A DNA stretch of 64,000 bases from Candidatus Woesearchaeota archaeon (GTDB taxonomy: Archaea > Nanobdellota > Nanobdellia > Pacearchaeales > GW2011-AR1), in the NCBI GenBank assembly GCA_964482075.1, contig CAYZVU010000001.1, forward strand, positions 343-64,342, in the 5' to 3' direction. The notes under the pieces are model-generated. The model had not been told where the DNA came from, made no database searches, and saw only the letters and a list, made by a program, of their open reading frames with translations. Of the stretch, positions 52,632-53,288 are shown in pieces (position 1 is the stretch's first letter; every line of letters begins with the position of its first letter). Position numbers and translations under genes: made by a program.

Positions 52632-53288
52632 TTAGAGGTCTCTTAATTGAAGTATTGTGTTTAAGCTTGCGATTTTTTTAAGGTTATTCGATATTTTTAA
52701 TTGAATATTTTTATTATTTAATTTGACTTTCTCGACGGGAATTTTCTTTTTAATTAATCTACTAATATAATCTCTAATAGAGCTTTCAGTTAAATTTAAT
52801 CTCTCTGATAAGGTTTTATAGTCGGAATACCCATGCTCTTCTTCTAGTTGATATAATGTGGAAAATACTAAAAGTTCTTGATCTGTTAATCTCTTAAATT
52901 TCAAGCGAATTTCTTTTTTAAGAACATCTAGCGAGTTTAAAGTTTGTATTGCATTTTCAAAAGAATTTTCATCAGATTTAAGGGCAAAATCTGTCTGTCT
53001 GTCTGTCTGTCTGTCTGTCTGTCTGTCTGTCTGAACCCCTTCATTTCTTATGGAAACCCCCATATTTTGGGACTTTAAGCCCCTAAGAGAGGTGTTATCT
53101 GTCGAAGTCGGAGCTATATTTGTCTGCTCCATAGTATTATCTGTCGAAAGAATCTTTTCTTGTTTTTTGGCTAAATTAACTAATAATTCATTATTCTGAT
53201 CTAAATTTTCCCTAATTAAATCGATTTCTTTTTTTAAAAAATTCATGTCTTGCTTCACTTTTTGAAAAGCATTTATTATATCATCCAT
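52632..53288 (-). CDS. Coiled-coil + wHTH DNA-binding protein, paralog, containing (CTGT)10 microsatellite
   Basis: Same architecture as the 51811 gene: N-terminal coiled coil, a QTDRQTDRQTDRQTD linker encoded by the 52981-53023 tetranucleotide repeat, and a C-terminal MarR/TrmB-like wHTH (LTDQELLVFSTLYQLEEEHGYSDYKTLSERLNLTESSIRDYISRLIKKK). Confidence 0.5.
   Translation of the reverse strand: MDDIINAFQKVKQDMNFLKKEIDLIRENLDQNNELLVNLAKKQEKILSTDNTMEQTNIAPTSTDNTSLRGLKSQNMGVSIRNEGVQTDRQTDRQTDRQTDFALKSDENSFENAIQTLNSLDVLKKEIRLKFKRLTDQELLVFSTLYQLEEEHGYSDYKTLSERLNLTESSIRDYISRLIKKKIPVEKVKLNNKNIQLKISNNLKKIASLNTILQLRDL
52981..53023. repeat. (CTGT)~10.75 tetranucleotide microsatellite inside a coding region
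   Basis: ctgtctgtct... uninterrupted for 43 nt; it is in frame with the minus-strand ORF as (QTDR)n. Confidence 0.9.

Follow-up and report, generated by a model that had tools for sequence, protein, structure and literature searches.

The subject of this analysis is a tetranucleotide repeat in a 64-kb stretch of DNA from a DPANN archaeon of the Pacearchaeota type; this whole stretch is referred to below as the window. The repeat tract lies in the reading frame of p218, a gene for a protein with a predicted winged helix-turn-helix (wHTH) domain, and directly 3′ of a canonical origin recognition box (ORB) that is contained in the same gene. A likely replication origin (oriC), next to the orc1/cdc6 initiator gene, is found about 1.5 kb away. 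The tract appears to be an unusually pure copy of an ancient array that has been conserved as DNA, and in close relatives the gain or loss of its units splits the gene in which it resides. The coordinates of the features are collected in Table 1.

Tandem Repeats Finder (TRF) describes the tract as (TCTG)11 with a period of 4, 11.0 copies, 100% matches and a score of 88, and direct inspection of the sequence confirms 44 nt of perfect period-4 repeat. On the strand of the gene it reads CAG(ACAG)10, which is (TCTG)11 on the plus strand, and it encodes QTDRQTDRQTDRQTD. It is the only long or substantial microsatellite reported by TRF in the window. The 12-mer ACAGACAGACAG, with up to two mismatches allowed, gives 14 matches against 1.5 expected, a number reached by 0 of 100 shuffles. 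A sequence-only reading of this DNA had described a (CTGT)10 tract of 43 nt at 52981–53023, inside the open reading frame (ORF) 52632–53288. The tract exists and is in frame within this 218-amino-acid gene on the minus strand, as was claimed; its position had been given about 10 nt off and its length one unit short. As in a simple sequence repeat (SSR) switch, the length of the repeat unit is not divisible by three and the repeat, (TCTG)11, is located inside a reading frame. With 11 perfect units, the window copy is among the most slippage-prone of its family, and it is now in the ON frame, in which p218 is intact.

The product of p218 contains a Pfam HTH_36 match at amino acids 133–182 (26.6 bits, with a cut-off of 25). 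The AlphaFold2 model, built with 34 homologues, consists of a long helix (residues 2–48), a stretch with a predicted local distance difference test score (pLDDT) below 50 (residues 48–105) and a wHTH domain (residues 136–199, pLDDT about 88–95). This arrangement agrees with the earlier proposal that the tract is placed between a coiled coil and the wHTH domain. The top Protein Data Bank matches of the model in Foldseek are members of the MarR family (E 4e-4, target-normalised template modelling score 0.45–0.58). Thus, the predicted wHTH fold and its signature are present, while the match is generic and a specific subfamily beyond MarR-like is not assignable. More than 1795 homologues are found, and they are annotated as Candidatus Pacearchaeota, Woesearchaeota or Nanoarchaeota.

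The ORB inside p218 reads TTCCAnnGGAAAT-GAA-GGGGT, and the distance between its G-string and the tract is fixed at 5 nt. The consensus of this frozen flank upstream of the tract is TATTTCCACTGGAAAT-GAA-GGGGTT, given also as the family consensus TATTTCCACTGGAAATGAAGGGGTT. Its core is a dyad with invariant TTCC...GAA (family consensus TTTCCACTGGAAAT, window TTTCCATAAGAAAT), and TTCC and GAA form the invariant core of ORBs (PMC1904270). The spacing to the G-string, GGAAAT-GAA-GGGGT, compares with the published GGAAATGA-AGGGGT and GGAAACGAAAGGGGT; the G-string itself is a recognised ORB module (PMC1868953, PMC3936714). Published ORBs of Methanomassiliicoccales read GTTCCAGTGGAAATGA-AGGGGT and TTTCCACTGGAAACAG-AGGGGT, and the pan-archaeal consensus is CTTCCAGTGGAAACGAAAGGGGT (PMC4153887, Table 2). 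Moreover, the motif is repeated, in inverted orientation, around the AT-rich region 54554–54870 next to orc1/cdc6.

This last property emerges from a position weight matrix (PWM) built from the embedded sites of 79 other species, with which the whole window was scanned on both strands. The top four sites in the 64 kb comprise the embedded ORB and three others that border the AT-rich repeats beside cdc6; the embedded ORB is within a coding sequence, at a distance of 1.46 kb from these repeats. Below these four, no site in the window exceeds 3.7 bits, and shuffles reach a mean maximum of 1.7 bits. The matrix was also applied to a set of 81 loci, comprising the lineage of the window and 80 GTDB species. 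Here, the matrix finds 80 embedded sites and 88 sites in 33 kb of spacers between cdc6 and the PRC-barrel gene (56 loci); the remaining 785 kb or so contain 34 matches, some of them in the origin spacers of loci that are truncated. At the position equivalent to 54554–54870, the AT content peaks at 0.78–0.80 across the 81 loci. Judged by its sequence, the embedded element is a member of the origin's own ORB family, and the region 54517–54991 is likely to be the oriC of the chromosome. GC skew over the 64 kb is dominated by gene orientation and is uninformative on the origin.

Some variation of these boxes is seen among the relatives. One sub-clade has a second, inverted ORB after the tract, encoding ...RHTPISYGN. 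In five loci (L043, L056, L062, L074 and L010), an extra strong ORB followed by CTTCGACACAT is found on the minus strand at about +1460..+1720 from the start of p218; this module is absent from the window, and TTTTTCCACTGGAAATCATGGGGCTTCGACACAT is an example of it upstream of nb199, the gene that neighbours p218. Additionally, most species have a conserved TTYTTCTTTTTTAGTAGTTATAATC after the ORB nearest to cdc6, and this element may be the promoter of cdc6.

The conservation of the tract was followed in the 81 loci and in a metagenome sample obtained by a frame-blind scan with a DNA pattern, which gave at least 120 matches; among the matches listed, 100 loci had enough sequence. An array of about 40 nt, (ACAR)9–10, homologous to the tract, is present in 81 species genomes and at least 100 metagenome contigs, all from Pacearchaeota-type DPANN archaea. 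All listed p218 homologues (50–62% identical) carry TDRQTDRQT, and in an alignment of 34 sequences T87, D88, Q90 and T91 do not vary. At the DNA level, the reading GGGGTTYCR-ACAGACAGACAG... is found in 81 of 81 loci.

The codons of this part of the gene are frozen. Between codons 74 and 99, single codons are used across the 81 loci for S79 (TCC, 81/81), G81 (GGA, 71/71), G84 (GGG, 80/81) and T87 (ACA, 80/80), and also for D88 (GAC, 77/77) and Q90 (CAG, 79/81). In the wHTH part synonymous variation is normal, and its invariant residues use three or more codons, such as CTT (26), TTA (21) and CTC (16) for L166 and AGA (29), AGG (23) and CGT (18) for R128. The freezing of codons 74–99 goes against the AT-rich codon bias of the rest of p218. 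Within the tract, the synonymous change CAG>CAA (units 3, 6 and 9) occurs at 5–10% and is rarer than the non-synonymous G>A change in units 2, 4 and 7 (18–31%). The ACAR pattern extends over units 1–10, and in 96% of 184 sequences unit 11 bears no relation to it, so that the tract ends sharply; in the other direction, the frozen stretch continues for about 35 nt past the repeat, into the ORB. The total length is 9–10 units in 74% of 149 distinct sequences. Purity is far more variable, from 0 to 11 leading perfect units, with the window near the top; about 46% of the same 149 sequences have a perfect run of at most 16 nt, and about half of the lineages have fewer than five perfect units.

The codon freezing, the rarity of CAG>CAA relative to non-synonymous G>A and the fixed length together argue for selection on DNA sequence and length, which would be the target instead of either the peptide or the purity of the repeat. 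On this view, the (QTDR)n and ISTGNEGV peptides are simply carried along, and the linker, predicted to be disordered, tolerates them. The tract thus appears to be an ancient array conserved at the nucleotide level and not a young microsatellite. The suggestion that the linker is a hotspot for repeat expansion is not borne out, since the array is ancient, constant in length in most sequences and attached to an ORB.

Two observations concern changes inside the array. In the pairs L006/L106 and L049/L130 (99.6–99.8% identical), the sole differences in 548 nt are base changes in the tract, ACAG>ACAA and ACAG>ACCA; substitution may thus be elevated in the array, or units may convert one another. 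In L196 and L200, a pure (ACAA)7–8 array (TNKQTNKQ...) replaces (ACAG)n; length and position are kept and the unit has been re-homogenised.

Several other roles or origins of the tract were considered and rejected. A hairpin or slipped-structure role is not favoured, as folding of either strand is no better than that of shuffles. An RNA element is dismissed because Rfam matches only 5S rRNA in the window, and, for 40 orthologous segments of 120 nt, RNAalifold yields −0.22 kcal/mol and no covariation. Regarding a mobile or viral origin, the pattern of ORB plus tract has 0 matches in viral contigs and the synteny with cdc6 is chromosomal.

The consequences of changes in unit number were computed for the window. 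The gain of one unit or the loss of two gives an N-terminal product of 100–104 amino acids plus an ORF of 134–138 amino acids that starts from an ATG in the upstream flank, within the spacer of the ORB, and contains the tract peptide and the wHTH domain. The loss of one unit or the gain of two gives only an N-terminal product of 115–119 amino acids. Changes by three units in either direction keep the p218 frame. Both single-unit alleles are therefore truncated ahead of the wHTH domain, and the predicted change of frame by one unit is confirmed by these computations and by split genes in relatives. The ORB-internal ATG is carried by about half of the family members, and natural split alleles (e.g., P0194, P0131, P0202 and P0121) have been called from the equivalent ATG. 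A further 8 or 9 database proteins start with MKGFQQT.. or MEGFQQT.., the peptide that the ORB encodes in the +1 frame.

Natural alleles were at first sight rare. All 81 GTDB loci are in frame, and so are 99 of the 100 metagenome loci among the matches listed; out-of-frame (OFF) alleles thus amount to about 1%. The sole OFF locus of these, L144, differs by a 2-nt indel in the tract from the 99.3%-identical L074, and this alignment excludes the gain of a 4-nt unit. No length change was found in nine near-identical pairs, and the sole substitutions of two of these pairs fall in the tract. An absence of slippage, which these numbers would imply, was overturned by gene calls that contain only the C-terminal half. 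When the wHTH half alone was used as a query of the protein database, about 134 short proteins were obtained, several of them within long contigs.

The comparison of these contigs with their relatives demonstrates unit-number alleles. For instance, L207 has 0 mismatches in 5.3 kb to L065, the representative of the species, and the sole difference is one ACAG unit (4 nt) that L207 lacks; L065 is ON and L207 is split. L202 and L203, from two samples, have 0 mismatches over 5.3 kb and carry (ACAG)10 and (ACAG)12, respectively, plus a 1-nt indel elsewhere; 11 units would be in frame, and the two strains, one below and one above this number, are both out of frame. An NCBI metagenome-assembled genome (MAG) of this strain has a contig that ends inside the tract, and a search with the N-terminal half for an in-frame allele of the L202 lineage returned only one partial protein, at a contig end. 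L211 and L212, both OFF, lack one 8-nt ACAGACAA unit relative to the in-frame L096, and the tract is likewise where the gene is split in L204, L209, L210 and L213. Overall, seven lineages split at the tract are consistent with unit gain or loss, and an eighth is split by a 2-nt indel. Whole-unit slippage therefore occurs in nature and outpaces point substitution over about 5 kb. The rarity of OFF alleles, about 1% of consensus assemblies, indicates purifying selection for intact p218 in most lineages. A further allele, in L206 (2099–2863), stays in a single frame throughout and has two in-frame stop codons, which exclude it as a slippage allele; it is either a pseudogene or a case of read-through.

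Table 1. Features at and around the embedded box and tract in the window
Feature	Position	Strand	Basis and remarks
Tetranucleotide tract	52990..53033	-	TRF and direct run check; homologous (ACAR)9–10 array in relatives
Host gene p218 (N-terminal helix, disordered linker, MarR-like wHTH; predicted)	52632..53288	-	Pfam HTH_36, AlphaFold2 model, Foldseek
Embedded ORB GGTTTCCATAAGAAATGAAGGGG	53036..53058	-	mini-ORB 53043–53055, G-string 53036–53039; encodes (G)VSIRNEG; PWM 29.4 bits
ATG in ORB spacer (AAATGAAGGGG), frame +1	53042..53044	-	Computed alleles; natural split alleles
Two TTCGACAGA boxes upstream of ORB	53098–53106 and 53140–53148	-	Encode STD motifs
Left ORB of the likely oriC	54517..54539	-	PWM 22.7 bits; orientation as embedded ORB; followed by ACACACAC
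AT-rich repeat region, presumed duplex unwinding element of oriC	54554..54870		TRF arrays, sequence
cdc6-side ORB of the likely oriC	54871..54893	+	PWM 17.4 bits
cdc6-side ORB of the likely oriC	54969..54991	+	PWM 8.2 bits
orc1/cdc6 initiator gene	55053..56264	+	Pfam Cdc6_C 3.8e-28, Cdc6_lid 7.4e-26
nb199 (helix, linker and helix-turn-helix, HTH)	51812..52411	+	Conserved in 78/81 loci; 60–75% conserved
Putative regulatory array upstream of nb199	51540..51700		AAACAGCTGTTT palindromes (51593, 51686); GGACAGGCTGTTTGTYTGTTTT x2 (51547, 51655)

The gene p218 contains a second set of conserved DNA boxes. Across the family, about three YTTCGACAYAT or TTCCAACACAT boxes are located upstream of the ORB in p218, where they encode STH, STD or PTH. 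Their codons are near-fixed across loci (T49 as ACA in 79/80 and T63 as ACA in 77/77), and the density of TCGACA reaches its maximum at +100..+300 of p218.

The order polD, cdc6, AT-rich spacer, PRC-barrel gene, p138, p88 and p218, with nb199 in convergent orientation, is kept in about 75 of the 81 loci, and cdc6 is syntenic with p218 in 56 of 81, most others being truncated contigs. The small and large subunits of PolD are encoded at 56261–61880 (Pfam), and a 5S rRNA gene is also found in the window (Rfam). Directly after the gene of the PolD large subunit, from 61883 to 64000 and past the end of the window (L001, 1–1409), lies a bacterial-type DNA polymerase III alpha gene with PHP, DNA_pol3_alpha and finger domains (Pfam E 4e-79). 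The gene is thus next to the archaeal origin, and a DnaE-like polymerase is unexpected in a DPANN archaeon. A serine recombinase gene (49606–50385) is syntenic in 45 of 81 loci.

The neighbour nb199 carries repeats of its own. Its linker contains AAACAGCTGTTT at 52089–52100 and a 12-nt repeat, GTTCAAACAGGT x2.8, at 52105–52138; KQTAVYAVQTGVQTGVQTP is present in the linker of 73 of 73 full-length orthologues, and synonymous variation of the linker codons is reduced. Upstream of nb199, conserved arrays of AAACAGCTGTTT and TGTTTAAACAGSCTGTTT are located, the TGTTTAAACAGSCTGTTT arrays having equivalents in other species, and the density of AAACAG/CTGTTT is highest in this region. The sequence-only reading had treated nb199 as a paralog of p218 at 51811–52411 and its 12-bp repeat as a sign of an expansion hotspot. 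The start is at 51812, and the paralogy is weakly supported and restricted to the HTH: BLASTP between the two proteins is not significant (E 0.8), and the profile–profile comparison gives 79% probability (E 1.6e-5) over 47 columns, in the HTH only. The repeat is real, but it is equally ancient; its conservation with reduced synonymous variation makes it an ancient DNA-level feature that provides no evidence of an expansion hotspot.

Further elements around nb199 deserve mention. The arrays at 51540–51700 and the 12-nt-phased GTTCAAACAGGT x3 (52049–52140) are kept across species. An inverted repeat, GTGCACTTAGG-TTG-CCTTAGT, at 51486–51506 is conserved in most of 73 species, where it bounds the region upstream of nb199 on its outer side; it could be a site for a recombinase or a regulator. 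Three GTTTTATCGACGR boxes are also present, two of them upstream of nb199 (51564–51576 and 51737–51749) and one inside its coding sequence (51977–51989); at the latter, about 63 of 70 orthologues use the codons TTA TCG for L57–S58.

The explanation judged fairly likely is a composite one: a pure copy of an ancient (ACAR)~10 array extends the embedded ORB, and its slippage splits p218 in relatives. The array of about 40 bp directly follows the mini-ORB dyad and G-string, and both are embedded, in frame, in the codons of the predicted disordered linker of a MarR-like wHTH gene, about 1.5 kb from the cdc6-adjacent origin. The role at the DNA level would most likely be that of an outlying Orc1/Cdc6-binding site with a position-specific extension, comparable to the dp1 ORB cluster of Thermococcales or to the Cdc6-titrating ORB region of Haloarcula. 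The array may be a functional extension of the ORB, or it may be a phased platform for binding in its own right. Since a repeat with units of four nucleotides here occupies a reading frame, slippage by whole units shifts the frame, as observed in relatives and presumably also in the window, and parts the N-terminal helix from the wHTH domain. The gain of one unit or loss of two yields two overlapping ORFs, and the loss of one or gain of two the N-terminal peptide alone. The window's own tract of 11 units would be unstable in the same way, and a physiological use of the switching may be supposed.

Several points weigh against this composite explanation. The dyad of the window copy is a degraded one, with TTCCATAAGAAAT where the consensus reads TTCCACTGGAAAT, and the extensions of the other ORBs differ from (ACAR)n. 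The occupancy of the embedded ORB by Orc1/Cdc6 is a prediction from its sequence. The ACAG-rich arrays in and upstream of nb199 suggest that another factor may read the tract array. The GTDB loci were picked by tblastn score with the motif itself among the search patterns, and are thus biased to intact, motif-bearing genes; in the frame-blind metagenome loci, as described above, OFF alleles are rare. In the lineage of the window, there is no heterogeneity across three contigs that encode an identical protein, including JGI Ga0075122_10000793, and the protein database contains no C-terminal-only gene call above 78% identity. The unit-number polymorphism foreseen for the window's population is seen in close relatives (L065/L207, L202/L203 and L096/L211/L212), and the three contigs of the window's own lineage encode one and the same protein.

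The reading that comes closest to the original proposal is a pure contingency locus, in which the repeat would be kept for its mutability, every population would include cells with and cells without the full-length regulator, and the ORB would be incidental. It would account for the whole-unit ON/OFF and OFF/OFF allele pairs in near-identical strains, for the P0127 lineage, in which every C-terminal-only assembly and one MAG are OFF or broken at the tract, for the GAC and CAG codons that keep the repeat perfect in a genome of 31% GC, and for the lineage-specific re-homogenisation to (ACAA)n or (ACAGACAA)n. In Haemophilus influenzae, the switching rate is set by the length of the tetranucleotide tract (De Bolle 2000, as cited in PMC11868660). 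However, the mutability expected of such a locus is not maintained: perfect runs are short in almost half of the sequences, 1 of the 100 listed contigs is OFF, length is conserved and not variable, and the frozen stretch runs beyond the repeat into the ORB. Moreover, the host gene codes for a DNA-binding protein next to oriC, and not for a surface or restriction–modification function. A pure contingency locus is accordingly judged unlikely, and of the proposed phase-variation switch the truncation before the wHTH domain stands, in relatives, while adaptive, reversible switching is no more than a possibility, given the scarcity of OFF alleles and the interruption of the tract in about half of the lineages. 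An origin-wired contingency switch has a similarly small chance of being correct. The same 40 bp would then act both as a cis element, initiator-bound or self-bound with 12-bp phasing, and as a slippage switch with three states: full-length, split (N-terminal peptide plus a short wHTH protein from the ORB-internal ATG) and null. A self-binding platform would instead separate the tract from the ORB as a mere neighbour, with the ACAG array and the TCGACA boxes as sites for p218, nb199 or p88, in the form of a one-turn-phased platform, an autoregulatory operator or a centromere-like site in the binder's own gene. It gains from the restriction of ACAG motif clusters to the linkers of p218 and of nb199 (in the latter as GTTCAAACAGST x3 with a period of 12) and to the region upstream of nb199 (AAACAGCTGTTT palindromes and TGTTTAAACAGSCTGTTT arrays), from the 12-nt distance between the best-conserved ACAG units (3, 6 and 9), and from the tendency of the TCG and CCA box variants to match within a genome. 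This matching may, however, reflect shared ancestry; p218, nb199 and p88 are putative binders, the intergenic arrays have AAACAG/CTGTTT and not ACAGAC as their consensus, and the tract is always 5 nt from the ORB G-string, which argues that both act as one unit. This possibility, too, is doubtful.

Two simpler explanations fare worse. If (TDRQ)n were a functional linker motif, with codon uniformity arising from slippage homogenisation, the invariant T87, D88, Q90 and T91 of the 34 aligned homologues would be expected, and every frame of (ACAG)n does encode the same four-amino-acid repeat. Yet non-synonymous changes are more frequent in the tract than synonymous ones, synonymous sites are just as frozen in the ORB flank, which is not repetitive, the region is predicted to be disordered, and the replacements D>N, R>K and R>Q are common, so that conservation for the peptide is very improbable. 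An artefact of assembly or sequencing in a low-complexity stretch could, in principle, produce unit-number differences and split genes: all of the data come from metagenomes assembled from short reads, the tract is where one MAG contig breaks off, and one frameshift is a 2-nt indel and not a whole unit. Against this, the same OFF products recur on 2–4 independent contigs each, from different samples; apart from the 2-nt case, the differences from in-frame relatives are exact multiples of 4 or 8 nt, the tracts (28–52 nt) are shorter than a sequencing read, and the flanks are otherwise identical over 5.3 kb. Such an artefact is the least credible of all the explanations.

The composite arrangement has partial parallels in known systems. 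In Bacillus subtilis, a parS site lies inside spo0J (parB) and is thus an origin-proximal cis site within a coding gene of its own system; this bacterial site is a 16-bp palindrome and not a repeat array, and it has no frameshift potential. As in the contingency loci mod and lic of H. influenzae, a tetranucleotide tract is placed in a reading frame, unit gain or loss truncates the product, and, among the relatives of the window, near-identical strains differ by unit number. Faster switching is expected of longer pure tracts (De Bolle 2000, as cited in PMC11868660). Unlike those loci, the present one belongs to a DPANN archaeon and to an origin-proximal DNA-binding gene, its tract adjoins an ORB, with which it is fused, and has kept its sequence and length throughout a very deep clade, and OFF alleles are not common but make up about 1% among the matches listed here.

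Closer relatives of the DNA element are found at archaeal origins. In Thermococcales, the dp1 gene for the PolD small subunit contains a cluster of ORBs and mini-ORBs, and binding of Cdc6 in Pyrococcus was demonstrated by chromatin immunoprecipitation and gel shift (PMC1904270). Like this cluster (Matsunaga et al. 2007), the p218 site consists of boxes in a coding gene a few kb from oriC; conservation there is order-wide. It differs in having a single ORB (two inverted ones in a sub-clade), a location in a wHTH linker, an array of about 40 bp and binding that is predicted. The oriC2D region of Haloarcula hispanica contains ORBs outside the core origin, for which titration of the initiator was proposed (Wu et al. 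2014, PMC3936714); unlike the p218 site, it is intergenic, has 11 ORBs and lacks coding overlap and a microsatellite. In Haloferax volcanii, long GT stretches follow some ORBs at the G-string end (Norais et al. 2007, PMC1868953). Similarly, the left oriC ORB of the window is followed by ACACACAC, a simple GT/CA-rich run after the G-string, whereas the H. volcanii runs, in comparison with the tract, are intergenic, are not tetranucleotide repeats and are putative as to function.

In the literature searched, no SSR-driven frameshift switch in archaea was found, and nothing relevant was obtained on replication origins of DPANN archaea of the Pacearchaeota type or on the TDRQ motif. Repeat-driven frameshift switching is regarded as bacterial, and a 2025 review (PMC11868660) names archaeal surveys as future work. 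The earlier remark that such switching is hardly described in archaea is in line with both.

The findings described here provide natural archaeal strains that differ only by repeat units that split a gene. They also reveal a microsatellite that is conserved base for base and at fixed length over a deep clade, because it is part of a DNA element, the ORB plus its extension, that overlaps a reading frame. The conserved "protein motif" ISTGNEGVxTDRQTDRQT represents a clear case of a translation by-product. Finally, the locus offers a first sequence-level picture of the likely origin of uncultivated Pacearchaeota-type DPANN archaea, with three ORBs, an AT-rich region, cdc6 and an outlying ORB embedded in a gene.

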